From: an uncultured archaeon
Lineage (GTDB): Archaea; Asgardarchaeota; Thorarchaeia; Thorarchaeales; Thorarchaeaceae
Assembly (NCBI GenBank): GCA_964473825.1
Contig: CAYYQL010000004.1
Location: 85,127-149,126 of the forward strand
DNA: 64,000 bases
Reading direction: 5' to 3'
This document shows, piece after piece, positions 5,929 through 40,466 of the stretch. A model generated the notes under the pieces. It did not search any database and had not been told where the DNA came from. It saw only the letters and a list, made by a program, of their open reading frames with translations. How positions within the stretch are numbered: the first letter of the stretch is position 1; each line of letters opens with the position of its first letter. A program made the translations under genes and the position numbers.

Positions 5929-6582
5929 GTGATATTCATGACTTACGATCTTGTAGTGTTCGATGTAGACGGCACCTTGACAAAACATAACAGCATCTGG
6001 TGGCGGCTGCACGAAGTATTCGAAACCACGGAAGAAGGAAAGGAGTTCTACGATCAGTTCTTCGCAGGGGAGATTAGCTATCAAGAGTGGGCAGATCTAG
6101 ATGCAGGGCTGTGGAGGGGTCGCAGTGTAGAGGAGATAATGGCCATTGTACATACAACTGAACTGGTCCCCGGTGCTGTGGAGACCATCGCCGAGATTCG
6201 TAATCGAGGCTTGGAGGTAGCGATTCTCTCTGGCGGAATCAATTTCCTTGCAGATGATATCGCTCGACGTGTCAACATAAGTTACGTGCTAACAAATGAA
6301 CTGGAGTCCAAAAACGGTATCTTAACGGGCAGAGTCAGAGTACGAGTTGGATGGGGCGAGAAAGTCGAAGAGATCAAGGAGATTCTCGACCACTTTGAAA
6401 CCGGTTTTGAGCGGACCATATTCGTAGGCGACGGGCGCAATGATGTCAGCGTTCTGAAAAAGGTAGGCCTAGCCATCGCTTTCAGGCCGGAGCATCCGGA
6501 GGTAGAACGTTCTGCCGATATTGTTGTCAATGAAGAGGATCTCCGGGCGATATTGCCTCATATACCTCCAAGACCAAACTGA
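5929..6582 (+). CDS. serB: phosphoserine phosphatase-like HAD hydrolase
   Basis: FDVDGTL, ILSGG, EK, VGDGRND. Confidence 0.75.
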   Translation: MIFMTYDLVVFDVDGTLTKHNSIWWRLHEVFETTEEGKEFYDQFFAGEISYQEWADLDAGLWRGRSVEEIMAIVHTTELVPGAVETIAEIRNRGLEVAILSGGINFLADDIARRVNISYVLTNELESKNGILTGRVRVRVGWGEKVEEIKEILDHFETGFERTIFVGDGRNDVSVLKKVGLAIAFRPEHPEVERSADIVVNEEDLRAILPHIPPRPN

Positions 6583-6609
6583 TTTGAGCTCCCCATCTTT
6601 CCATCTAAG

Positions 6610-7755
6610 CTACGTGTACCGGAGATTGGTTCCTGTGTTCAACAGGACTACTTCTTCATCAAAGTCTATGTCGCCAGCCTCCACAAGATTTCGGAGTCCT
6701 GCTAAGCCAACTGCTGCTTCTGGTCCCATCATAATGCCCTCCATTCTTGCGACCATGACCTGAGTCGGTCGAATCTCATTCTCAGCGACAGCGACGGCGG
6801 AACCACCCGATCGCCTTATGGCACTCAGTATCAGTCTTCCGGCAAATGGGTTTGGAACACGAAGACCCAATGCTTCTGTGCGAGGGTTCTTCCAAGGCTC
6901 CAGTGTATCCAATCCCTTTTCGATAGATCGAACTATGGGGGCGCAATTCTCAGTCTGTGCGGCATATAACTTGGGTCGCTCACTCCCAATAGCTCCAATG
7001 CCCTCAAGCTCGTCTAGGGCCTTCCATATTCCTATCAAGGCAGTACCTCCACCAGTTGGACAGATTATTGCATCAGGAACTTCCCAGTTCAACTGCTCAA
7101 TTATCTCAAATCCTATCGTTTTCTTTCCTTCAACCCGATAGGGTTCTTTTGTTGTGGATAGGTCTATCCAGTCTCCCTTTGTCGCTGTCATCCTCATGGC
7201 TGCGTCTGAGATTGTACCTTCGACGCGATGAGTCAACGCTCCGTACATCTCGCAATCCCTGAAGAAGGGCTCCGGCGTGTCATCTGGCATGAATATGGAA
7301 GCCTTTGCCCCCGCTGCAGCACAGTAGGCCGATGTTGATACCGCCGCATTCCCTGCTGAGGGAAGAGCGAAGCTCCTTGCGCCAAGTTCGAGATGCTTCG
7401 ATATCGCGCTACAAAGACCACGGTCCTTGAAGGACCCCGTCGGATTCAGAGTTTCATTCTTGATACGGAGCAATCGAAGCCCAACTCTCTGTCCAAGCCT
7501 TCGAGCAGTCAACATCGGTGTCCAGCCCTCTCCCAGACTCACTACGAATGAGAGTGACTTCACCGGGAGTAATTGAGAATACCGCCACATGCTATTGATA
7601 TCTGTCGGGAATCCTCCACATCTGAAGGCATCACGGACTCCACCAAGATTATAGGTCGCCATTAGAGGCGAACCACAAATGCAGTGGTCCGCAGGTCTAT
7701 CTGCCGAGTACTTCGTTGCGCACTCGGGACATTCGAGATGAGTTATGTTTGACAT
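6610..7755 (-). CDS. thrC: threonine synthase-like PLP enzyme
   Basis: N-terminal CxxC..CxC; SLGEGWTP, NPTGSFKDRG, SAGNA, PTGGG. Confidence 0.85.
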   Translation of the reverse strand: MSNITHLECPECATKYSADRPADHCICGSPLMATYNLGGVRDAFRCGGFPTDINSMWRYSQLLPVKSLSFVVSLGEGWTPMLTARRLGQRVGLRLLRIKNETLNPTGSFKDRGLCSAISKHLELGARSFALPSAGNAAVSTSAYCAAAGAKASIFMPDDTPEPFFRDCEMYGALTHRVEGTISDAAMRMTATKGDWIDLSTTKEPYRVEGKKTIGFEIIEQLNWEVPDAIICPTGGGTALIGIWKALDELEGIGAIGSERPKLYAAQTENCAPIVRSIEKGLDTLEPWKNPRTEALGLRVPNPFAGRLILSAIRRSGGSAVAVAENEIRPTQVMVARMEGIMMGPEAAVGLAGLRNLVEAGDIDFDEEVVLLNTGTNLRYT

Positions 7756-7837
7756 CAAAGAGGGCACTCACATTTTTACATTCAAGCACAGACTTATTTG
7801 TCTATACGATTTCATTTTGAAGATGGAGGACTTTTCC

Positions 7838-23056: not shown

Positions 23057-24949
23057 ATGCAACTAGGTGGATATCAGGGCCGAATCCTTCGCGTGAATCT
23101 GAGTGAAGAGAGAGTCTGGGTAGAGAACCTGCCTAAAGACTGGATTGAAGACTATATCGGTGGTGATGGCTTCGCAGCTCGTCTGCTCTACGAAGAAGTT
23201 CCGGGCAGAACGGACCCCCTCTCTCCCGATAACAAGCTGATAATCGCAACGGGCCCGATAACTGGAACGCTATGGCCCATGAGTGGGCGGACAGTGTTCG
23301 TGTCAAAGGCTGCACAGACTGGCATTTGGGGTGAGAGTCATGTTGGCGGTTTCCTGGGTCCAGAGCTGAAATACGCAGGTTATGACTTGCTTGTTGTAGA
23401 AGGTGCCGCCGAGAAGCCTGTCTATATCACAGTTGAGGACTCCTTGACTGAGATAAGAAGCGCGGACGAGTTCTGGGGGATGAAGACTGATGAAGCAACA
23501 GAGGCCATCAAGAAACACCACAGGGACTCGGACATGCAGGTCGCGGCCATCGGCCCTGCGGGAGAGAAGCAGGTCAGGTTCTCCTCAATCATTGTGAATC
23601 ATGCAAGGGCCGCCGGTCGAAGCGGGATGGGTGCTGTACTTGGTTCGAAGAATGTGAAGGCTATCGGAATCCGCGGTCATGGCAGGGTGAGTGTTGCCCA
23701 TCATGATGAATTCGTGGAGCTGGCCAAGAAGGCTCACAACCGAGTGAGAACGAACCCTCAGGCTCAGGAGATGCATCGGTGGGGGACCTGGATTCTTACG
23801 GCGGTCAAGCAAGAAATAGGCGAGCTGCCCACCTTCAATCATAGGACTGGGGTCTTTGAGGGATGGGAAAGTCTTAGTGGGGACCACATTCGCCCTCGGT
23901 ATACGGTTTCGGACCGGGCCTGTTTCGGTTGCAGTCTGGGATGCAAGAAGGTGAACTATGTTCGGTCTGGTCGTTATGCCGGCACACTGGAAGAGGGTCC
24001 AGAATATGAGGGACTGATGGCATCTGGAAGTCTTCTGGGTATCTCGGATTATCCCACAACTCTGAAGGCTAATGAGATATGTAACCAGTATGGGATGGAT
24101 ATAATCTCCGCAGGGGCGACTATTGCATTTGCAATAGAGGCCTTTGAAGAAGGACTCATTGATGTCAATACCACAGGAGGGCTTGAGCTGAGATGGGGGG
24201 ATTCGGAAACGGTCATCAGACTTCTAGAGATGATAGGACGAAGGGAGGGATTCGGGAAGACGCTCTCCCTTGGTTCGAAACGTGCAGCCGAAGAGATTGG
24301 TGGTGGAACCGAACGTTATGCGATGCATGTCAAGGGTCTTGAGATATCTGGCCAAGATGGCCGTACGCATAGAAGCATAGGTCTAGCTCATGCTACAGGT
24401 GCTAGAGGTGCAGATCACCTGAGAAGTCTTGTCACAGTAGATCAACTTGGATATGAGGACGTTGCCGCCGAGCGGTGGGGCGCCGACAAGCTGCCAGAGA
24501 TCATCAATCCTTACACTGAGAAGTACAAGGCTGCAGCTGTTGTTGAGACCGAAAACGCGTACTGCTTGCGCGACACACTCATCGTTTGCTGGTATTCGGT
24601 ATCTTGGCCGCCTATCTTCTGGGTAGAGGATTTTGCTGAGGTGCTACCTCTCGCCACAGGAATCGAGTCTCTGGGAGATATTGGTCATCTGACAGAGATT
24701 GCTGAACGCCAAGTCACACTCAAGAGGCTCTTCAATGCCAGAGAGGGAATAACACGGGAGGATGATGCCTTACCGGACCGGTTCACAAAGACACCAATGC
24801 CCGAGGGGCCAGGAAAGGGAGAGATGGTAAATCTTGACCCTATGTTAGATGATTACTATAGGCTGAGAGGCTGGGACCGTGAAACGGGTCTTCCAACTGA
24901 TGAGACCATCGACCGACTAGGTCTATCATGGACCAGAGAGTATCGATAG
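23057..24949 (+). CDS. aor: aldehyde:ferredoxin oxidoreductase (W/Mo, AOR family)
   Basis: IGPAGE, AGRSGMGAVLGSKN, CFGCSLGC, EGPEYE, KGLE, RGADH. Confidence 0.92.
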   Translation: MQLGGYQGRILRVNLSEERVWVENLPKDWIEDYIGGDGFAARLLYEEVPGRTDPLSPDNKLIIATGPITGTLWPMSGRTVFVSKAAQTGIWGESHVGGFLGPELKYAGYDLLVVEGAAEKPVYITVEDSLTEIRSADEFWGMKTDEATEAIKKHHRDSDMQVAAIGPAGEKQVRFSSIIVNHARAAGRSGMGAVLGSKNVKAIGIRGHGRVSVAHHDEFVELAKKAHNRVRTNPQAQEMHRWGTWILTAVKQEIGELPTFNHRTGVFEGWESLSGDHIRPRYTVSDRACFGCSLGCKKVNYVRSGRYAGTLEEGPEYEGLMASGSLLGISDYPTTLKANEICNQYGMDIISAGATIAFAIEAFEEGLIDVNTTGGLELRWGDSETVIRLLEMIGRREGFGKTLSLGSKRAAEEIGGGTERYAMHVKGLEISGQDGRTHRSIGLAHATGARGADHLRSLVTVDQLGYEDVAAERWGADKLPEIINPYTEKYKAAAVVETENAYCLRDTLIVCWYSVSWPPIFWVEDFAEVLPLATGIESLGDIGHLTEIAERQVTLKRLFNAREGITREDDALPDRFTKTPMPEGPGKGEMVNLDPMLDDYYRLRGWDRETGLPTDETIDRLGLSWTREYR

Positions 24950-28900: not shown

Positions 28901-31495
28901 TTGGAAGACACGCATGATATAGATCTCTCAACCCCGAGCACAGCTGAGGCGATAAGTCTCGCATCAGCATCTGTTTTGGGTTCAACCACCCGACGCGGTC
29001 ACCCAATAGGGACGGCAATCGGCTCAGGGTCGATGATGGAGTCAAACTCTGAAGAGGTGGCTCTCAATGTCATGCCTGTTGTGTTTTCAGCAAGGGATAG
29101 TCTGTTACATGCTGAGCATCTTGAGCTGCTTGCTGCTGAGTGGTATCTGGAGGGATCTGCTGGTTCGGAATTGCTTCCTGAAGAACTGGTTATCGCCGGT
29201 AGCAGTTTCGGCGGCATTAATACTCATGTATGTGTCCTGTCTTGGGAGAAGGGAGTTGTTGACCCCTTCAAGATCGACTCGCATATCACGAATCTCTCGA
29301 AGAAAATCGGAGATATTGAACAGGCAATCGAAGCCAATGAACTTGACTATGAGAGGGACGGTCTTCTGGTGCTTAGGAGATTCTCTGATCGATTCAACAG
29401 AGTCCTCTTCGTGGACATGATGGACCGGAGGTTCAAGGGCTCGTGGGATTCGGTTCAGATCAAGCACGAAGGGTCCGAAGCATATCTTCGTGTTCGTTCT
29501 GGATTCTCTGAGGACTTCACTTCGATGCCTCCGAGTATACGGGTACTGGAACGCCAAGACATCGAATTCTTGGCGTCTGGCATTCCTTGGAACCGGGACG
29601 CCGGTTCTCTCTCTCGTATGATATCGACTCCTCTGGGTATTGACACGGTTACAAGGCGCTTACCTGAACTAGGTCGTTCCATTCTGCGAGAGATGAACGC
29701 GTATGCTTACAGTGCAGAGGAACTGGATATCGCTCGCTCTCTGGTAGAGTCGCTCATCGTCCGAGTCGGTAAGGAGAGAGTCATGTACTCTGACTTTGAA
29801 AATGTCTTGGAAGTTGCTAGGCAGATGATAGAAGATTCAAGTGTCATCCTGTCTTTAGTCACGAAGTCTCTCGAAGAACACATCCAGTCTGGCAAGGTAT
29901 TGACAGTTCCTCAACACATTGACTCAGTAGGAGAGGCTCTAGATGAGTTGGCAGAGGGTGCTGGAGATGGCGAAGTGATCAAGAGCTTGCTTGAGCAGCT
30001 TGAAAAATCACTACTCAGAACTTTCCCCAAAGAGAACGAAGTGAGAGCTTGGCAGATGCGAAGCTCCATTAGGTATTTCCTTACCTATTATCGGAGAGTT
30101 AACAGCTATTTCATTAGGGATCTGAAACGATACCTGGTTATCGGTGCGGTGACAGAGGCCTTCATGTTGGCTCTTGAGGGATTTAGGGATGACCTGGGGG
30201 TCCAGGATTATGACAACGTAGACTCCCTGCTATTTACAAAGTTCTTTGTCGAACTAGTTTCCCAGCTTCGGGCAGTATTTGATAGAGAGGCATTCGAGTC
30301 GGGCAAGACGAGTGGATATTCGGAACTCGCAGAGTCTCTCGGGCACAGACTCATGGATGCATTCGAGCAGATTGAAATCTGGAGTCTCGTGTCCTTTGGC
30401 GACTTGGCTGAGATTGTACGGACGCAGATTGTTTCTGAGTACTCAGACTCGGGTTCAGAAGACACACTTGACGAGGAGGGGAAACGACTGATTCAACGTT
30501 TGAACGCCCTCGAACTTGTTATCTCTGAAACACTACCAGATTTTGTTGATCATGTTTCGTCAGCTCCATTCATGTCTGAGTTCTTGATGAGAGGTCTGAA
30601 GAGCGATAGACCTGGCAAGGATAGGTTGATAGAGATTCTTAGAGGCGCAAAGAGCAAACCTGATGAATGGATCCAAGAAGCTGCAGGATGGGTAGATGCG
30701 TTTGCCCCAGACACTCCATATAACTCCGACACCGAGCTACTCGCAGACTTCCTGACCTTCGTGCATAAGAGGTATGGAGCTGGCATCTCTGCTGCATCCA
30801 TGGTGGAAAGAGTTGCTGGTGAGGAGAAAACGCTCGAAGAGGACTTCCAACAACAGCTGCAGTCGTGGCAAGATGAATGCGAAAGGATCGAAGCTGAGAA
30901 TGCTCCCGTTATCGCGAGGAACAAGAAGAGGCTGGAACTGATTGCTCAAGCGCGTTCCAACTTTGAAAATGAACAGGCCGAGTATGAGGAGGCGCTTGAG
31001 GAGTATGAACAGCACAAAAGGATGGATTACGATGGGGTGTCTGATAGTCCAAAACACCCGGTTACTCCCGAACCTCTGGATCTCCGAATAGCTAGAATAG
31101 AGCGGGAGTACCCAGAAGGAATTCCCAAACCAATTCCAGAGAAGCCTCTCCCTTCTGAGGCTCTGATTGACTGCAGGCGGCTTCGAGCGCTGCTCAGTGA
31201 TAGACTGGAGCGGATGGACGAACGACTTCATGCAATGAGTACCATCTTCTCGAAGCGGCTAGAGCAGTTGAAATCCGAAGGAACTCGTCGAGTAGAAAAT
31301 ATCAAACTGAGCATCTCTGATGGATTTCTAGACCATCTATTGGATTCGATGATTCGTTCCTTGGGAAAACTCATGCCTCGTATTCAGCGAGTCCTGCTTC
31401 GTGATCTCGATGATTCTTCGCGGATACATGTGGTCTCATACGACTACGTGGAAGATGAGTTCATTGTGACTATTGGATACAAGGAGGTCGCTTGA
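28901..31495 (+). CDS. large hypothetical helical/coiled-coil protein
   Basis: 864-aa ORF, coiled coil and Pro-rich segment near the C-terminus. Confidence 0.75.
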   Translation: MEDTHDIDLSTPSTAEAISLASASVLGSTTRRGHPIGTAIGSGSMMESNSEEVALNVMPVVFSARDSLLHAEHLELLAAEWYLEGSAGSELLPEELVIAGSSFGGINTHVCVLSWEKGVVDPFKIDSHITNLSKKIGDIEQAIEANELDYERDGLLVLRRFSDRFNRVLFVDMMDRRFKGSWDSVQIKHEGSEAYLRVRSGFSEDFTSMPPSIRVLERQDIEFLASGIPWNRDAGSLSRMISTPLGIDTVTRRLPELGRSILREMNAYAYSAEELDIARSLVESLIVRVGKERVMYSDFENVLEVARQMIEDSSVILSLVTKSLEEHIQSGKVLTVPQHIDSVGEALDELAEGAGDGEVIKSLLEQLEKSLLRTFPKENEVRAWQMRSSIRYFLTYYRRVNSYFIRDLKRYLVIGAVTEAFMLALEGFRDDLGVQDYDNVDSLLFTKFFVELVSQLRAVFDREAFESGKTSGYSELAESLGHRLMDAFEQIEIWSLVSFGDLAEIVRTQIVSEYSDSGSEDTLDEEGKRLIQRLNALELVISETLPDFVDHVSSAPFMSEFLMRGLKSDRPGKDRLIEILRGAKSKPDEWIQEAAGWVDAFAPDTPYNSDTELLADFLTFVHKRYGAGISAASMVERVAGEEKTLEEDFQQQLQSWQDECERIEAENAPVIARNKKRLELIAQARSNFENEQAEYEEALEEYEQHKRMDYDGVSDSPKHPVTPEPLDLRIARIEREYPEGIPKPIPEKPLPSEALIDCRRLRALLSDRLERMDERLHAMSTIFSKRLEQLKSEGTRRVENIKLSISDGFLDHLLDSMIRSLGKLMPRIQRVLLRDLDDSSRIHVVSYDYVEDEFIVTIGYKEVA

Positions 31496-31498
31496 TAG

Positions 31499-33940
31499 AT
31501 GTCTAGCACTTGGATACTGAAAACCAAGCAAATGAGCGAGGCAGGTAAGGAGATTATTCTCACAGAGGCGCTAGCGACTCACATGCGTAGTAACAGGGAC
31601 CGAGAGCTTCTGTCCAGCATACTCAAGGAGAATAGGCCCCTAGAAGACATAATGTCATTTTTCGCAGCCTTCTATCTCTACAACTATCAGGGCCTTCGAC
31701 TGCTCAGCATGAGTGATGACGAACAACTGACTATTGAGAAGAAGAAAGAGCTCTCGCATGATGAGCGTCGCTATCTTGAGATGGAGATTCGTGAGATACT
31801 GGAGAATAGGCTGAGAGAAGAGATTGACATCGAGCGACTGATTTCGGAGTTTGTGTTGGAGCTCGTTGATATACCGGGTGTGCAGGCACGAGAAGATGAA
31901 GCAGCTTCTAAGGTGGTCAGTCTTGTTGAGGGCTATCTTGAGAAGATTCCACACGACTATTCTCCTAACAGTGCCCTTGATTTCATTCTTGGCATCACAG
32001 GTTGGCGAAAGCGTTGGCTGGATGAGCTTTATGCGAAGGCCTCGGGACTGAAGGAATCCTCACTATCTCTCAGGGATGAATTACTAAGAGAACATGAGGC
32101 TGAAGTCGTAGAGACCTCGGTTGTTAGGAGGCTGCTATCATTCATTGCTGGAGGAGAATCCTATTTGAGCGGCCCTCTGACTGGGGCTGATATTCCTCAT
32201 GAAATCCTTGTCGAGATTACTCAGGCGTCAATTGACTTTCTGTTTCCTCGGTCCGGTTCTCTGGATCCTATCCGCTTGGCTCATGGCTCACGGATAGAGA
32301 TACTTGACTGGCTTGTTGAGGAAGTCGATTCTCTCACTAACCTCAGTGACCTTGAAAAGCGATTGGCTGACAGAATAACGGAAGAGATCACCACCAGCAT
32401 TCCAGATAATCCCCAGTATGCCTTTCCCTTTATCAGTCACCTCGTGTCTGTAGAAGAAGAGATAGTTAGAAGTGGACTGGCCGCTAAGCGTCTGGTGGAT
32501 CCGGAAACCCTGCTTGAGGGCCTCAGTTCATTTTCAAGTGACTCTGCTGTAGAAGAAACACCAAGTCAATACAGCCCGAAGGAGCTCGAGGACATAGAGC
32601 GTTCGCTACGAACTCTGGAGAAGCTCGAAGACACACTGGAAAAACCTGTTAAAGGAATGCTTAGAGCACGAGGTCTTAGAGCTGAAGAGCTTGACAAAGT
32701 TGGTATTAACATCTTGGCGAAGAATCCATCCGAACTCATCGCCATCGAATCACAAGTATTGGATGAACTAAGAAAGAAGATGAGGGTGCCCTCTCATGAA
32801 GAATTCCTCGAGATGCTGAAGGCCCGAGAACTCGTTGAGCACGGTGGCCTAGGAGAGATGGGCATCTCTTCTTCCTCCGACATGACGATACAGAGACAAC
32901 ATGAGGAAGCGGTAGCATCTCTAAGAATGGACCTAGTTTGGCATTTCATGATAGGCACTCTGAAGAACCTCGCAAGGGTCGTCGAGACCTATCTGAGGTC
33001 GAAGCAGGATCTATTACGGAGCAAGGCGCTGCTCTTGAGCATTTATCAAGATGCCGCCACAGAACTTCAATTCTTGCGAGAGGAGATTCTGATTGACTTA
33101 CTATCGGAACGTATTCTCGAAATGAAGCAGGTTCATCCACATCTTGATGGGATGATGATACGCTCTTGGATGCATGCCCGGCTGTCAAATCAGCACATGT
33201 CCGCTGCGAGGGAGGAGCTTGAGAAAACACCGAGCCCGGTCTTTGAGGGAGTGACTGACGAACCCCTGCAGGCCAGTACATTATCATTCGATAACTATGC
33301 CATATCCTTTGACCTGATGCAACGATTCCTAAGACGAGAGCGCAGGGAGAAACTCGCCAAGGAACAGCTTGCACTTGAAGCAGAACGAGAGGAGAAGCGA
33401 CTTCTTGAGAAGAAGAAGAGAGAGATTGATGTACTCTCATTCATCTATACGAAAGCCCATACAGTATTCAAAGCAACTGGCAGGGTTGGCACCGCAGGTC
33501 TGGAGTGGGATGAGAATGATTCGGCAAAATGCTCGAACATGCTTTCTTTCTTCGTGCAGACAAAAAGAGGTCGTCCAATCTGCCAAGTCTGTGGAAGTAC
33601 CCCAAAGGATGGGAAGTGTGAAACGCACGGCAAAGGACAGATGAAGACCAGCGATGACATCGATAATCTATCCGTCTTTGTGATGAGATCTCTCTCAGAT
33701 ATCAAGTCTGGGCTCATCGGGCCTACCGCTGAACCAGTATCATGGAGCGAGGCAAGGTCAATCGTTCAGAGAGAGATAAGCCGTCTGAAGCGGAAGGGGA
33801 AGATCACCTCAAAGATGGATCTCAAACAGCTTATGCTTGGAGAGATAAACCACATCATTGGTCCTGCGATAACCAGCGTCATAGCAGATTACTTCAATGA
33901 CTCATTGGGGTATGCTGCCCGAAGCGCCGGCATAGCTTGA
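31499..33940 (+). CDS. large hypothetical helical protein with Zn finger
   Basis: 813-aa ORF 3 nt downstream of the previous gene; CQVC......C..H. Confidence 0.8.
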   Translation: MSSTWILKTKQMSEAGKEIILTEALATHMRSNRDRELLSSILKENRPLEDIMSFFAAFYLYNYQGLRLLSMSDDEQLTIEKKKELSHDERRYLEMEIREILENRLREEIDIERLISEFVLELVDIPGVQAREDEAASKVVSLVEGYLEKIPHDYSPNSALDFILGITGWRKRWLDELYAKASGLKESSLSLRDELLREHEAEVVETSVVRRLLSFIAGGESYLSGPLTGADIPHEILVEITQASIDFLFPRSGSLDPIRLAHGSRIEILDWLVEEVDSLTNLSDLEKRLADRITEEITTSIPDNPQYAFPFISHLVSVEEEIVRSGLAAKRLVDPETLLEGLSSFSSDSAVEETPSQYSPKELEDIERSLRTLEKLEDTLEKPVKGMLRARGLRAEELDKVGINILAKNPSELIAIESQVLDELRKKMRVPSHEEFLEMLKARELVEHGGLGEMGISSSSDMTIQRQHEEAVASLRMDLVWHFMIGTLKNLARVVETYLRSKQDLLRSKALLLSIYQDAATELQFLREEILIDLLSERILEMKQVHPHLDGMMIRSWMHARLSNQHMSAAREELEKTPSPVFEGVTDEPLQASTLSFDNYAISFDLMQRFLRRERREKLAKEQLALEAEREEKRLLEKKKREIDVLSFIYTKAHTVFKATGRVGTAGLEWDENDSAKCSNMLSFFVQTKRGRPICQVCGSTPKDGKCETHGKGQMKTSDDIDNLSVFVMRSLSDIKSGLIGPTAEPVSWSEARSIVQREISRLKRKGKITSKMDLKQLMLGEINHIIGPAITSVIADYFNDSLGYAARSAGIA

Positions 33941-34273
33941 TCACTTCTCGGAAGACTCGGAATTCACACTTTGTGTTATCCAGTCCAGATAGGTATCATT
34001 TCCTTCAATAATCGGTAGGACAATGAATTCTGGCACTTCGTAGGGATGAGAGGCCAAGAGCGCTTGCTCTAGAGATGCAATTTTCACCGCCGTGGTCTTG
34101 ATGATTAGAAGGTCTTCTGGTTCCTTCTCGATTTCACCTTTCCATCGGTAGACGCTTGATAGACCTCTGACTATGCTCACACATGCACAGAGCCGCTTCT
34201 CAACGAACTCTTCCGCGATGCGATCCGAAGAATCGCGTTGGCAAGTGGTTAATGCAATACGGAATTCAGTCAT
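33941..34273 (-). CDS. cutA: divalent-cation tolerance protein CutA
   Basis: LCACV, SVYRWKG, E.LLIIKT, HPYEVPE. Confidence 0.95.
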   Translation of the reverse strand: MTEFRIALTTCQRDSSDRIAEEFVEKRLCACVSIVRGLSSVYRWKGEIEKEPEDLLIIKTTAVKIASLEQALLASHPYEVPEFIVLPIIEGNDTYLDWITQSVNSESSEK

Positions 34274-34342
34274 GACATCACATTGCGAGTGGAAACTTAT
34301 ATACGCCCTCTATCTCCGGAGTGAGTGTTGAGGGAACTCTGA

Positions 34343-35743
34343 ATGGTTTCAAAGTTCAAGCCCAAAGGGGTCATGCCTGCGCTGATTACACCCTTCACAA
34401 GAGATGGAGACATCATGGAAGATGGGTTCAGAGAGGTAATCGACTACACAATTGAGAAAGGTGCCACCGGGGTTGTCCCGGCTGGAACCACCGGTGAGTT
34501 CATCTACATGCGGACCGAGGAGCGTAAGAAGCTCCTCAAGCTCGCTGTAGAGTATGTGGATGGTCGAGTTCCAGTCATTGCTGGGACTGGGCAGAATAGC
34601 ACAAGGGCAACAATAGCGCTCACTCAATATGCCGCCGATATTGGTTGTGATGCTGCCCTTGTTGTTTCTCCGTTCTATCTCAGGCCTTCTGACAAGGGCT
34701 ACTATGAACACTACTCCAACCTTGCACGGCAAGGGAATCTGCCCCTGATTCTCTACAATATTCCTCAATGTACTCTGGGGGAACTCGGCTCAGATCTGGT
34801 CTACGATCTGGCTGCCCTAGATAACATTGCGGGGATCAAAGATAGCAGCGGCAATATCGGGAAGACGGTCGAACTCATCCAGAAGCTCGAAGGAAAGATT
34901 CCCGTACTGATTGGCCATGATGAATGCTTTCTGTCTGCAGTGGCTGCAGGTGCCAGCGCGGCAATACTGGCATCAGCCAATGTTATCCCTCACATCTGGT
35001 TGGATATCATGAAGAAGGTCAATGAAGGTAAGATGCTAGAGGCAATGAGACTTCAACACTCTGTTCAGACCTTTGCTCGACTTGTCACCAGAAACGGCGG
35101 TGCCCCTCCAGCAAAGGCCGCTCTGAAGATGATGGGAATAAACGCCGGGAAATCGAGACTGCCTCTTAATACCGGCGGGACGCTGACAGTCGAATTAAAG
35201 GACGAGATTCGCATGGAGCTTGAGAAACTGGGACTCATCGCCTCACAGGAGCAACAACCCCTGATTGATAATCTAGATATGGTTTCGCTCTTCAATGAGT
35301 TCAACATCTCTCCTGACCTTCTCGACGGTGCAAGATTCGGACAGGCCTCGAATGAACAGGTCAGTGTATCTATCGCTGCGGGGCCAAAGCAAGGTGATTT
35401 GGGTCGCGTGTTTGTGAAGCTGCTTACTCAGGCAAAGATTGGACATGAAGCGCTCTCGGTCATTCTTGAGCCAAACCTCTTTGTCAAGCCGAGTAGCATC
35501 ATGGTTCCGGCCCGGACCATAAGGTCGATGCGCCAGGCTTCTCTTTTCTACGGCCCTGTTCAGTCTGGTGCAGCCAAAGCAGTATCGGCATACCTCGATG
35601 CGGCGAAGATACCAGCTGAAGCATTGAACAGCAGTGTGATGATAATGGCAATGGATGTTGACTTGAACAGCAGAGATCGAAGAGCTGTGACAGATGCTGC
35701 AGAGAATGCGGTTGGAAGAGCATTGGCTGAGGTGTGGAGGTGA
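34343..35743 (+). CDS. DapA/NAL-family aldolase fused to degenerate Fae domain (copy 1)
   Basis: GTTGEF, LYNIP, GIKDSSG; C-domain from ~35330 with ILEPNL.VKP and Q...YGPVQSGAAKAV. Confidence 0.85.
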   Translation: MVSKFKPKGVMPALITPFTRDGDIMEDGFREVIDYTIEKGATGVVPAGTTGEFIYMRTEERKKLLKLAVEYVDGRVPVIAGTGQNSTRATIALTQYAADIGCDAALVVSPFYLRPSDKGYYEHYSNLARQGNLPLILYNIPQCTLGELGSDLVYDLAALDNIAGIKDSSGNIGKTVELIQKLEGKIPVLIGHDECFLSAVAAGASAAILASANVIPHIWLDIMKKVNEGKMLEAMRLQHSVQTFARLVTRNGGAPPAKAALKMMGINAGKSRLPLNTGGTLTVELKDEIRMELEKLGLIASQEQQPLIDNLDMVSLFNEFNISPDLLDGARFGQASNEQVSVSIAAGPKQGDLGRVFVKLLTQAKIGHEALSVILEPNLFVKPSSIMVPARTIRSMRQASLFYGPVQSGAAKAVSAYLDAAKIPAEALNSSVMIMAMDVDLNSRDRRAVTDAAENAVGRALAEVWR

Positions 35744-35748
35744 CCAAG

Positions 35749-37224
35749 GTGAGTGACGATTTCCATTTCAAGGGCGCTTATCCTGCACTGGTCACACCTT
35801 TCGATGAGGACGGGGTCAATGAAGAGCAGTATCGAGGTCTCATTGACTATGTCATAAGAGCCGGTGCAACGGGAATTGTCCCCTGCGGTACCACTGGAGA
35901 GTTCACCAGCATGCGCTTCGAGGAGAAGATGGAGGCCATCCGCATAGCATGTGATGCAGCGAAGGGCCGTGTTCCTGTACTTGCCGGAACAGGTGCTGCC
36001 TACACAAATGATGCCATCAAGCTCACTCGTCGTGCTGCGGAATTTGGTGCCGATGCAGCTCTGGTTGTTTCCCCATATTTCCTGAGGCCGTCTAATCGTG
36101 AGATATACGAGCACTTTGAGAAGATTGCCAACAACAGTGACATCCCTCTGTTTCTATACAATATTCCTCAAGTAACGGGAGTTCCCCTTCACTGGACCCT
36201 TGTCGACGGGCTTCGCGAGATCGATGGGGTAGTCGGAATGAAGGACTCTAGCGGAGATCTGGTGAATCTCACAACCATCCTCGTCAGAAGACCTGAGGAC
36301 TTTCAGGTTGTTATTGGTCATGATGAGGTTGCTTTGCCTGCATTAGCTGCAGGATGTGATGGTGCAATCCTGGCAAGTGCTAACGTGTTCCCCGATAGGT
36401 ACATCAAGATGCAGGCTGCACTTGCGGAGGGCGACCTCAAAGGTGCCATGATTATCCAACGGAGCATACAGAAGACCGTGCGGGTGTTTGTGAACAAGGG
36501 CGGGGGTCTTGCGGTGAAAGCAGCTCTCAATATGATGGGCGTTCCGGTCGGCAAAGCTCGGCTTCCCCTTATGGAAGGCGACTCTCTCTCTTACGAGGAC
36601 ATAGATGAGATTCGTACATGTCTTGAAGATATGCAGCTCATCCAGCGCGGACCGGTACGATTCGTCATGGGTGAGCGTAGTCTTGTCGCGGAGTCCTATC
36701 CAAAAGCAGTGGGGCTAGTGCAGGATGAGGTATCTGATCTGACACTGCTACATGGTGAGGCCTTGGCTGGCAGTGGTCTGGAGGTCGCTCATGTGGACTT
36801 GGTCATGGGAATGAAGAACGGGCCCCTCGAAGTGGCAATTGACAACGCAGGTACTACTGTGGAGGGTTTCCATCCATCGAATATAATCAAAGGTCTTGAA
36901 CCCACAACCATTTTCGCTCCGACAGTGACCATCACCAACGAGCGACATAGGAATCTTGTGTACGAGAGTGCCCAGAAAGGTGTTGCTGATGCCGTCACAA
37001 GAACAATCACCGACTGTATCATTCCTGAAGAGCTGGTGCAGGATATTGCAGTTGCTGTGAATGTCTTTGTTCATACGAAGGCCATCAATCCGCGACGTGT
37101 GCATATCAACAATTTCCGTGCAGTCAGGTTCGCATTACGCAGAGCCATTGAGGGGAGGCAGAGTGTTGAGGAGATCGCTGCAAGGCGTGATTCGGCCCGC
37201 CATCCGTTTGCCTATAACCCCTAA
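35749..37224 (+). CDS. DapA/NAL-family aldolase fused to Fae domain (copy 2)
   Basis: GTTGEF, LYNIP, GMKDSSG; C-domain from ~36745 GEALAGSGLEVAHVDL...VFVH...RHPF; GTG start after GGAGGTGA. Confidence 0.9.
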   Translation: MSDDFHFKGAYPALVTPFDEDGVNEEQYRGLIDYVIRAGATGIVPCGTTGEFTSMRFEEKMEAIRIACDAAKGRVPVLAGTGAAYTNDAIKLTRRAAEFGADAALVVSPYFLRPSNREIYEHFEKIANNSDIPLFLYNIPQVTGVPLHWTLVDGLREIDGVVGMKDSSGDLVNLTTILVRRPEDFQVVIGHDEVALPALAAGCDGAILASANVFPDRYIKMQAALAEGDLKGAMIIQRSIQKTVRVFVNKGGGLAVKAALNMMGVPVGKARLPLMEGDSLSYEDIDEIRTCLEDMQLIQRGPVRFVMGERSLVAESYPKAVGLVQDEVSDLTLLHGEALAGSGLEVAHVDLVMGMKNGPLEVAIDNAGTTVEGFHPSNIIKGLEPTTIFAPTVTITNERHRNLVYESAQKGVADAVTRTITDCIIPEELVQDIAVAVNVFVHTKAINPRRVHINNFRAVRFALRRAIEGRQSVEEIAARRDSARHPFAYNP

Positions 37225-37551: not shown

Positions 37552-37715
37552 TCCTCATTTGTGTCAACTAGGTGGGTCGTGTTTTCAACTCGTTCCAAGA
37601 TGCCTGTGCTCTGCTTTCTGACAAATCCCTACTTCATTGCCTTTGGCCTCATAGAGGCCATCCTTTTAGCTCAAAGAGATTATATGCATTTATACGAATA
37701 GTAACACGATGGCCA

Positions 37716-37988
37716 ATGTTCGAAATCATCACCTTTGTGGTAGCGTTTGTAACCTTGCTGTTCCTAGCAGGGAAGTGCTACGGCCGGGGCCCCTCCTCCG
37801 GGGAGGTAAGAATAACGAGGCCTGACCCGAAGAGAGTTGATGGGTTTGGTGGAGTAAGAGGTTATGATTACTCGTATTCTGGATTCTCGGGCAGAGGATA
37901 CAGCAGACCTTTTCCAGTTGGTCTTAGGACTGAGCGAGAGCGAACCGACACCCACAAGAACTCCAAGGGCAGGAACTCCCGCCGCTAA
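37716..37988 (+). CDS. small single-TM protein (paralog 1)
   Basis: MFEIITFVVAFVTLLFLAGKCYG...; homologous to the copy at 38263. Confidence 0.7.
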   Translation: MFEIITFVVAFVTLLFLAGKCYGRGPSSGEVRITRPDPKRVDGFGGVRGYDYSYSGFSGRGYSRPFPVGLRTERERTDTHKNSKGRNSRR

Positions 37989-38262
37989 TCTGAATCCGTC
38001 ACTGTGGTTCTAAGAACCGATTAGGAGACAGGATTGTGGATGAGATGGCTTTGTCTATACCTAGAGGGGACGAGCCTCTGCTATCAAAGATTGTTCAACT
38101 TGCAATGAACGGACTATGATCCAGATGTGGACCCCATCGAGATTCCATGACGCCCGTGTCCACGTATGAATCCCCTCTCTTGTCGTCATTCTCTCGCAAA
38201 ATCCTCCAGCTGGGGTATGAACACTCGTAGGACTAAATACGAATAGTGTATCAGAGAGAAAG

Positions 38263-38539
38263 ATGTTCGAGATGATTGGGTTCGGAATCGTCGTCGTCAT
38301 GCTCCTCTTCCTTAGCAGGGAAGTGCTACGGTTGGGGTCGCTCCTCCGGCGAGGTAAGAATAACGAGGCCTAACCCGAAGAAAGTTGATGGATTCGGCTG
38401 GACACGAGCTTGTGGTTTCTCCTACGTTGGGGCCAATCCCGATGGCTATCCCAAGCCACTCCCTGTTGGCCTTCGGGGAGAGCAAGAAAAGACAGATACC
38501 TGGAAGGCCTCTGAGCGCAACGATTCGGACCGCCAATGA
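38263..38539 (+). pseudogene. paralog 2 of the small TM protein, frameshifted by an extra T at ~38312
   Basis: TTCCTTAGCAGGG vs TTCCTAGCAGGG in paralog 1; early TAA at 38371; homology continues in the shifted frame to 38539. Confidence 0.7.
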
Positions 38540-39326: not shown

Positions 39327-40466
39327 ATGGAGATGCTCAAGGAATCACGGATCATTTCGCTTGCCCAGTCCCTGATTGCGACCAATTCGGAGAGTCCGCC
39401 CGGGAGAGAGGCTGAAGTTGCAGCAGTGTTGAGAGAGCACATGGAGTCGCACGGAATTGGATGCAGGTCCGTTGGCGAAGCAGAACGTCCAAATCTTATC
39501 TTCTACTCCCACGACTATGAGATAGGCGATCTCGTCATTCATGGCCATATGGACACAGTTCCGGTTGGGTCTATCGAGTCCTGGAAGCACGACCCGTTTG
39601 GTGGAGAGATTGTCAACGGTCGGCTCTATGGACGTGGCTCCTGTGATATGAAGGGGCCAGTGGCAGCACTAGCCGAGTCGATCATACTCTATTCAGAAGA
39701 AAGACATGAACGTCCTCTTGTCATGCTTGCTACATCGGATGAGGAGAGCGGCTGTTCAGGAGCCGAGGCTGTTGCAGCGAGTGGTATCTTGAAGGGCATA
39801 AGGTACGGAGTATGTGCGGAACCCACCAGTCTGGATGTGCTGGTAGGTGAAAAGGGGATGCTCTGGACAAAACTCATCGCTCATGGAAAGTCAGCGCACG
39901 GGTCTAGACCTGAAGAGGGAGTAAACGCCATCGACCTCTGCATCAAGTCGCTCCAGCTGGTCAAAGAAACAGAGTTTCCCTACGAACAGACTGAACTCAT
40001 GGGCCCGCCCACTCTAAACCTAGGTCTCATCGAGGGTGGTATCAAGATCAATGTTGTCCCTGATAGATGTGAGGCATCACTTGACATGAGGCTTGTCAAG
40101 GGCCAGTCTATAGATACCGTTCTTGAGAATATGCGACTGGTCCTAGATGAGTCGCAATTCGATGGGCGAGTTGAGCTGGAATACGTGCATGGGAAGGACG
40201 CAGTTCTGACACCTTTGGATGCAGAGATTGTCGCTGTCACACTGGATGCTGTTGAAGCAAATACGGGTCACAGACCTACTCCCACATCTGCGACCTATGG
40301 TACCGACTGCTCGGTGTTGCAGCCCAAGATCGGGATTCTCAATGTCATATGTGGTCCGGGCTCAATTGAGCAGGCTCACCAGCCGAATGAATACATCCAG
40401 ATCGAAGAGATGGTTAACTCGGTCAACATATACTTGGAGATTGCACGCCACTTCGCTTCCAGTTGA
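39327..40466 (+). CDS. M20 family metallo-amidohydrolase (ArgE/DapE-like)
   Basis: HGHMDTVP, GRGSCDMKG, DEE, AEPT, GPG..QAHQPNE. Confidence 0.92.
   Translation: MEMLKESRIISLAQSLIATNSESPPGREAEVAAVLREHMESHGIGCRSVGEAERPNLIFYSHDYEIGDLVIHGHMDTVPVGSIESWKHDPFGGEIVNGRLYGRGSCDMKGPVAALAESIILYSEERHERPLVMLATSDEESGCSGAEAVAASGILKGIRYGVCAEPTSLDVLVGEKGMLWTKLIAHGKSAHGSRPEEGVNAIDLCIKSLQLVKETEFPYEQTELMGPPTLNLGLIEGGIKINVVPDRCEASLDMRLVKGQSIDTVLENMRLVLDESQFDGRVELEYVHGKDAVLTPLDAEIVAVTLDAVEANTGHRPTPTSATYGTDCSVLQPKIGILNVICGPGSIEQAHQPNEYIQIEEMVNSVNIYLEIARHFASS

Follow-up and report, generated by a model that had tools for sequence, protein, structure and literature searches.

Tandem aldolase-Fae fusion genes in a Thorarchaeota genome: a putative split formaldehyde-activating site and a candidate 4-hydroxy-2-oxobutanoate aldolase

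Formaldehyde-activating enzyme (Fae) is known as a stand-alone homopentamer, which binds tetrahydromethanopterin (H4MPT) between adjacent, identical subunits with His22 as the catalyst. The reaction pyruvate + formaldehyde ⇌ 4-hydroxy-2-oxobutanoate (HOB, the keto acid of homoserine) is described for a class I aldolase and for the class II enzyme RhmA, in both as a side activity (PMC7918591, PMC8879981); the class I 4-hydroxy-2-oxoglutarate aldolase (EC 4.1.3.16) adds pyruvate to formaldehyde in such a side reaction (PMC7918591), and HOB is called non-native in a description of the engineered homoserine cycle (PMC8879981). Our literature searches, with most subscription journals outside their coverage, found no paper on a fusion of a DapA-family barrel with Fae, and a study of Asgard archaea mentions only Fae-Hps (PMC11291895). 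Here we describe two adjacent genes of exactly this make-up, A and B, at positions 34343 to 37224 of a 64,000-nt stretch (the window; contig CAYYQL010000004.1, positions 85,127 to 149,126) from an uncultured member of the Thorarchaeota.

The data point to a real and conserved enzyme system for which we found no description in the literature, and from them we infer a specific substrate. We see an even chance that A and B are a subfunctionalised heteromeric HOB aldolase-Fae, catalysing HOB + H4MPT ⇌ pyruvate + methylene-H4MPT. This proposal draws on the observed domains, residue pattern, distribution and gene contexts; the A-B interface comes from a model, and the substrate, direction, channelling and the role of a partner barrel, c1, are deduced from these.

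Domains and barrel residues of the gene pair

Gene A (34343..35743, + strand) encodes a protein of 466 aa and is followed in the same direction by gene B (35749..37224, + strand). The open reading frame of B was listed with a start at 35734 (496 aa), yet GTG at 35749 is the likelier start, giving 491 aa. The two proteins are 39% identical to each other and their nearest relatives carry the label DapA of Candidatus Thorarchaeota. Searches with Pfam profiles found both domains in both genes: the dihydrodipicolinate synthase (DHDPS) profile matched residues 7-277 of A (249 bits) and 12-284 of B (248 bits), and the Fae profile (PF08714, cut-off 27) matched residues 336-462 of A (85.4 bits) and 341-492 of B (106.8 bits). 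The class I (Schiff-base) aldolase barrels thereby lie on the + strand at 34361..35173 in A (Thr49/Thr50, Tyr138, Lys166) and at 35767..36585 in B (Schiff-base Lys and Tyr133 retained). The Fae domains follow at 35348..35728 in A, with GHEAL, LEPNL (35465) and YGPVQ (35549), and at 36754..37209 in B, with AHVD (His22 equivalent at 36790-36792) and RHPF (37198), also on the + strand. Both matched the solved Fae of Methylorubrum extorquens (1y5y) with E-values of 3.4e-9 (A) and 1.9e-23 (B). Neither reached the cut-off of the Fae equivalog TIGR03126 (A 75.8, B 117.8; cut-off 118.05), and the Fae-Hps model NF009833 gave 68 and 93 bits for the pair at a cut-off of 274. With the models for NanA, archaeal 2-keto-3-deoxygluconate (KDG) aldolase, KdgD and HpaI, the pair remained far below all curated cut-offs. 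A and B are the sole DHDPS-family and the sole Fae genes found in the genome, which is 95.7% complete.

A preliminary description of the locus had recognised in both genes a DapA/NAL barrel with the Schiff-base lysine, followed by a C-terminal Fae domain. The barrels are confirmed by the Pfam matches and by the motifs GTTGE, YNIP and KDSSG, present in both. The Fae domains are likewise supported by Pfam and by 1y5y, but neither of them is complete.

Comparison with Escherichia coli DapA showed that Thr44/Thr45, Tyr133, Lys161 and Asp188 are retained in the pair, from which Schiff-base chemistry with pyruvate would be expected in both barrels. The columns that bind aspartate semialdehyde in DHDPS are changed: Arg138, Asp187 and Asn248 read Cys, His and Gly in A and Val, His and Gly in B. 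They are replaced likewise in the single fusions of other lineages, and Arg138 was not listed for any fusion class. The column of Tyr107, a residue of the inter-subunit triad, holds Tyr in A (92% of the class) and Phe in B (99% of the class). Because of this Phe, the A and B barrel sites may be unequal. The Schiff-base Lys is missing in 4% of Thorarchaeota B sequences.

These replacements bear directly on the database labels, which would make A and B true DHDPS for lysine synthesis. Both proteins do exceed the TIGR00674 dapA cut-off of 206.15 bits (A 223.2, B 238.9), which explains the label, and DHDPS enzymes are their best PDB matches. Against a role in lysine synthesis, the three semialdehyde-binding residues are replaced in all classes; DapB, Asd, aspartokinase and homoserine dehydrogenase (Hom) were not found in this genome, nor was DapB in any of the 48 other Thorarchaeota genomes; and all five tested Lokiarchaeia genomes with DapB possess, besides the fusion, a separate canonical DapA, roughly 290 aa long and with the Arg, GDD and NP motifs, whose gene adjoins dapB. 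We thus consider a DHDPS function very improbable. The earlier statements that the substrate-binding Arg is replaced and that these are not lysine-biosynthesis enzymes are well supported.

Complementary Fae domains and their distribution

Our alignment of Fae domains comprised those of 120 A and 109 B proteins, 11 members of pairs from outside Thorarchaeota, 32 single fusions and 30 Fae-Hps proteins (M. extorquens Fae numbering). The single fusions and Fae-Hps served as the intact-Fae reference, in which 46 positions were at least 90% invariant. Seven of these are retained only by A (Gly35, Leu52, Pro58, Asn59, Ala80, Gly85, Pro86), 19 only by B (among them Gly10, Glu11, His22, Asp24, His121, Asn134, His164 and Pro165) and eight by both. 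The Fae domain of A keeps the EPN loop and Gly85-Pro86; it lacks the His22 strand residues and His121, and its chain stops before the C-terminal arm. That of B keeps GEAL, His22, His121 and the C-terminal HPF arm, with the 58-61 loop deleted and Gly85-Pro86 lost. Gln88 is present in A and in most Thorarchaeota B proteins. As His22 and the C-terminal arm occur in 99% of B and in 0% of A, the set is complete only when A and B are combined. The same division of Fae positions was observed in five pairs from outside Thorarchaeota.

Since the Fae site appears split between A and B, neither gene alone would be a full aldolase-Fae module. The preliminary description had taken the genes as an aldolase linked to the pterin one-carbon pool, and a barrel and a Fae domain are indeed present in both. 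With each chain bearing one face only, closure of a Fae ring should be prevented.

The A and B Fae domains were also modelled as a complex, taking the two domains as a pair. The model scored 0.88, while the best control scored 0.01; by the same mark, 58 of 80 solved complexes and 2 of 110 mismatched pairs passed. Runs agreed in no fewer than 87% of contacts, and the pLDDT of the partners was 82 or higher. In the modelled interface, A residues 349-386 stand against the GEAL strand of B and its neighbours. Retention on the modelled faces was 0.58 for A on its own face vs. 0.26 on that of B, and 0.68 for B on its own face vs. 0.31, a roughly twofold difference in favour of the own face in each class. 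Together, model and alignment suggest an obligate A-B heteromer, in which the Fae face of A and that of B would form one composite H4MPT/formaldehyde site per pair.

Fusions were counted in 201 Asgard genomes by their barrel at E ≤ 1e-60. They occur in 100 genomes of ten families, including 46 of the 48 other Thorarchaeota. In most lineages the fusion is single and intact, about 495 aa long, and Fae-Hps is encoded separately; single fusions are found in Bathyarchaeia too. No full-scoring Fae was detected in the sampled Thorarchaeota, which own the A/B pair instead. Outside Thorarchaeota, tandem pairs were seen in two further families of Asgard archaea, as well as in records bearing the labels Anaerolineae and Korarchaeota/Thermoproteota. 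A and B would be best pictured as subfunctionalised copies of a fusion which other Asgard archaea and Bathyarchaeia carry as a single, intact gene. As to whether the split arose once or repeatedly, a tree with all B barrels in one clade was not rejected (p-AU 0.35), although the Korarchaeota-labelled pair groups together.

Mch is present in 95 of the 100 fusion genomes. The genome studied here has Mch, Mtd and serine hydroxymethyltransferase (SHMT); Hps was not found in it. A survey of co-occurrence with H4MPT genes had been suggested earlier, and its outcome for Mch and Mtd supports the proposed link of the pair to the pterin one-carbon pool. In family f12, a CitG-family gene lies convergent with the single fusion (L071:6690-7673); CitG-like genes belong to H4MPT biosynthesis clusters.

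Gene contexts, candidate substrate and rival explanations

In other lineages the fusion adjoins one of two further genes, c1 (428 aa) or c4 (315 aa). Among the 100 fusion genomes, c1 was found in 77, c4 in 18, neither in five and both in none. c1 is highly conserved, with EHH and KHEG motifs and at least 8000 homologues, and has no Pfam or NCBIfam match. In this genome it is located on contig C45 at 6503-7780 (L083:6497-7822, - strand; also L044:3737-5023), and its neighbours in Thorarchaeota are an energy-coupling factor (ECF) S-component and a ThrC-PadR fusion. c4 shows U32-like features and adjoins the fusion in five Asgard families (L070:5870-6817; L086:8998-9933; L087); its bacterial homologues share sugar-acid operons with genes for an enolase-family dehydratase, a lactonase-like protein and an ABC transporter for sugars. 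Both c1 and c4 model as TIM barrels. Fold searches did not yield a function for either, as they returned tied, unspecific TIM-barrel matches (best VIA Z 11.9 and 15.0). The idea of c1 as a ThrB substitute found no support: ThrB is rare throughout, and it occurs together with c1 in four f21 genomes. In one Asgard genus, the gene immediately upstream of c1 is a divergent DHDPS-family member of 348 aa that lacks Fae (L116:4978-6024, L117:4985-6031).

In families f5 and f21, in which no Mch, Fae or fusion was found, c1 heads an operon of a class I aminotransferase, a homoserine dehydrogenase (NF004912, 424 bits; cut-off 373) and an aldehyde:ferredoxin oxidoreductase (AOR) (L106-L115, L170, L197). 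An Asd-family domain is present in only 1 of 36 such contexts, and the operon is a possible ferredoxin-linked homoserine/aspartate route. We classified 99 c1 loci, of which 30 have the fusion alone, 13 the full three-gene module and eight parts of it, many on short contigs; four have a PanB-family gene (a fifth was found by inspection), one has the fusion plus Hom, and 43 have none of these. At L163, in Bathyarchaeia-like synteny, Hom and AOR occupy the slot of the fusion. Hom occurs in 30 of 40 genomes with c1 or c4 but without the fusion. Because the aminotransferase accompanies the Hom operon and is absent near all 40 fusion loci inspected, c1 probably handles the keto acid itself, not homoserine. 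In five bacterial loci, a PanB-family gene with the unusual motifs WLTxYD and HGQLL directly precedes c1 (L176:5124-5984, L188:5103-5957, L190, L193, L199). Two of them face FolD and Fhs and one lies beside Wood-Ljungdahl (acs) genes; this PanB relative is possibly a pyruvate hydroxymethyltransferase.

HOB is the simplest metabolite common to an aldolase-Fae, a methylene-folate 2-oxo-acid hydroxymethyltransferase and a transaminase-Hom-AOR module, and we favour it as the substrate because the three modules around c1 most simply meet there. The barrels would act as pyruvate Schiff-base aldolases, most likely on HOB, with formaldehyde as a short-lived intermediate passed from the aldolase to the Fae site. 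HOB had been named before as an example substrate; the gene contexts lend it independent support, while its identity is our deduction from them. We lean slightly towards cleavage, in which c1 would produce HOB and the A/B pair would dispose of it, yielding pyruvate and feeding the methyl branch of H4MPT. This preference arises because ThrB was found in none of the 100 fusion genomes, because AOR without Asd suits the oxidation of aspartate semialdehyde, and because H4MPT binds formaldehyde strongly. Oxidation of the aldehyde is the easy direction for AOR, and capture of formaldehyde by H4MPT is strongly exergonic (about -35 kJ/mol). One can only speculate on how c1 might supply HOB, e.g., from the methionine keto acid by loss of its 4-substituent. 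A still broader reading, to which we give somewhat less than an even chance, takes the fusion as the H4MPT arm of a widespread, so far undescribed anaerobic HOB-centred pathway. In it a c1-type TIM barrel would link three interchangeable modules, one being the H4MPT-dependent aldolase-Fae, another a PanB-like enzyme that uses folate, and the third transaminase-Hom-AOR leading to aspartate; the Fae ring of Thorarchaeota would have been split into a two-gene composite site.

Several observations weigh against the HOB aldolase-Fae proposal. c1 is not adjacent to the A/B pair in Thorarchaeota, its homology with c4 is weak (hhalign probability 10%, E 0.003), and fold searches with it gave no clear match (Foldseek found none at E ≤ 0.001). 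The PanB-family genes before c1 exceed the TIGR00222 cut-off, and the five loci may represent one lineage with an ordinary pantothenate PanB. The pass of the A-B model may reflect only likeness to the solved Fae pentamer; the orientation of the conserved faces is more telling than the score itself. In a distant, decayed pair (L095:8544-11449), the Schiff-base Lys is lost in both barrels and the complementary Fae halves are retained. Related genomes are not independent, so that all occurrence counts are descriptive. To these are added the GxDE motif of the barrels, which resembles that of NanA, YagE and YjhH, enzymes of longer sugar acids, and the scarcity of Hom in fusion genomes (15/100 vs. 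65/101; in the Lokiarchaeia family f9, 8/31 vs. 11/14).

The scarcity of Hom would fit the same chemistry run forwards, with methylene-H4MPT and pyruvate giving HOB for use by c1, or by an unlinked transaminase that would make homoserine for threonine and methionine. SHMT and Mtd could provide the methylene-H4MPT, PanB runs in the forward direction on folate, and c1 of Thorarchaeota lies near a ThrC-family gene. However, synthesis has to contend with the lack of ThrB in fusion genomes and of an aminotransferase near the fusion, with the alternative operon that has AOR but not Asd, and with the favourable capture of formaldehyde. We regard it as unlikely, and the weight given to it is a share of that of the proposed chemistry, not an addition. 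The GxDE motif leads to a different alternative, judged equally unlikely: the acid cleaved by the barrels would be a 4-hydroxy-2-oxo acid other than HOB (ketopantoate, a branched hydroxymethyl sugar acid or a 2-keto-3-deoxy sugar acid) and Fae would capture formaldehyde or a related small aldehyde. The sugar-acid operons of bacterial c4 homologues are in line with it, and ketopantoate is the usual PanB product. Yet this explanation leaves the c1 operon with Hom, aminotransferase and AOR unexplained, and the scores with the NanA, KDG aldolase, KdgD and HpaI models argue against it, as does the canonical PanB already present in this genome. The same PanB makes it disfavoured that the fusion replaces PanB in ketopantoate synthesis. 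Less probable again is an uncoupling of the two activities, with the Fae halves either scavenging formaldehyde in general or serving in regulation or assembly as a pterin-binding module, beside unrelated barrel chemistry. That the pair carries the only Fae domains of the genome would agree with this, as would the decayed pair and the B proteins that have lost the Schiff-base Lys. On the other hand, most single-fusion lineages also own Fae-Hps and would not need the fusion for mere scavenging, no Hps was found here as a source of formaldehyde, and the fusion is kept across Asgard archaea, Bathyarchaeia and Korarchaeota- and Anaerolineae-labelled records. On balance, we retain the HOB aldolase-Fae as the preferred explanation for the pair.

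Neighbouring genes and comparison with known systems

The immediate neighbours of the pair (cutA, two large proteins and an M20 peptidase) are uninformative on the substrate. A Shine-Dalgarno-like element, GGAGGTGA (35736..35743, + strand), includes the stop codon of A and ends 5 nt upstream of the B GTG, an arrangement which suggests that translation of A and B is coupled. A BRE/TATA-like element (B recognition element and TATA box), GAAAC-TTATATA (34292..34303, + strand), lies about 40 nt upstream of A in the gap to the divergent CutA1 gene (33941-34273) and is a consensus match only; a scan for bacterial promoters and terminators gave nothing above chance. Further upstream are two co-directional genes for proteins of 864 aa (28901-31495) and 813 aa (31499-33940) with no Pfam match, which are kept upstream of the pair in other Thorarchaeota loci (30-35% and 48-58% identity). 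The window also contains, at 23057-24949, one of about nine AOR-like genes of the genome. Downstream, at 37572-38539, two short similar open reading frames (138 and 87 aa) with a common membrane-anchor-like start and an EVRITRP motif look like a local duplication. The M20 (ArgE/DapE-like) deacylase at 39327-40466 is kept downstream of the pair in Thorarchaeota (60-66% identity). We rejected it as a pathway member, given that the neighbours in Thorarchaeota and in f12 are only 28-30% identical and probably not orthologues.

As genes that are near-universal in Thorarchaeota and labelled DapA, the fusions may be credited to lysine in metabolic reconstructions of Asgard archaea and Bathyarchaeia, and a link between a C4 keto acid and H4MPT one-carbon metabolism may be missed. 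A dedicated pyruvate/formaldehyde aldolase with built-in capture would be a step that synthetic methylotrophy borrows from promiscuous enzymes. If the forward direction were true, the reaction would be the natural counterpart of the engineered homoserine cycle, and a HOB-centred pathway running forwards would be a natural one-carbon-to-homoserine route, so far known only as a design. The A/B pair offers a clean, testable example of a homo-oligomeric active site divided among duplicates, and the gene contexts provide the first substrate hypothesis for c1, a large conserved family without a Pfam match.

Among described systems, Fae-Hps resembles the pair in that Fae is joined to an enzyme forming or cleaving a C-C bond with formaldehyde, in H4MPT-using archaea and often in the same genomes; in A and B, however, a class I DapA-family barrel replaces Hps, Fae is C-terminal and the site is split over two genes. 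M. extorquens Fae (1y5y/1y60) matches in sequence across the domain, with His22 and the HPF arm found in B, but each chain of the pair retains one face only. With DHDPS the pair shares the fold family and Thr44/Thr45, Tyr133, Lys161 and Asp188; it differs in lacking Arg138, Asp187 and Asn248, in Phe for Tyr107 in B, in the extra Fae domain and in the absence of a diaminopimelate pathway from the genome. EC 4.1.3.16 and the HOB aldolase step of the homoserine cycle have the same proposed reaction, pyruvate + formaldehyde ⇌ HOB, yet those are a side reaction or a designed step with free formaldehyde, whereas here the reaction would belong to a putative dedicated, H4MPT-tied enzyme. PanB is alike in the net transfer of a hydroxymethyl group between a methylene-pterin and C3 of a 2-oxo acid, and a PanB-family gene precedes c1 in some bacteria; it is, however, unrelated, a class II metal enzyme that has one site and uses folate, and the PanB gene of this genome lies elsewhere. 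The pair would work like Fae-Hps or PanB, yet is a member of neither family, nor of DHDPS.

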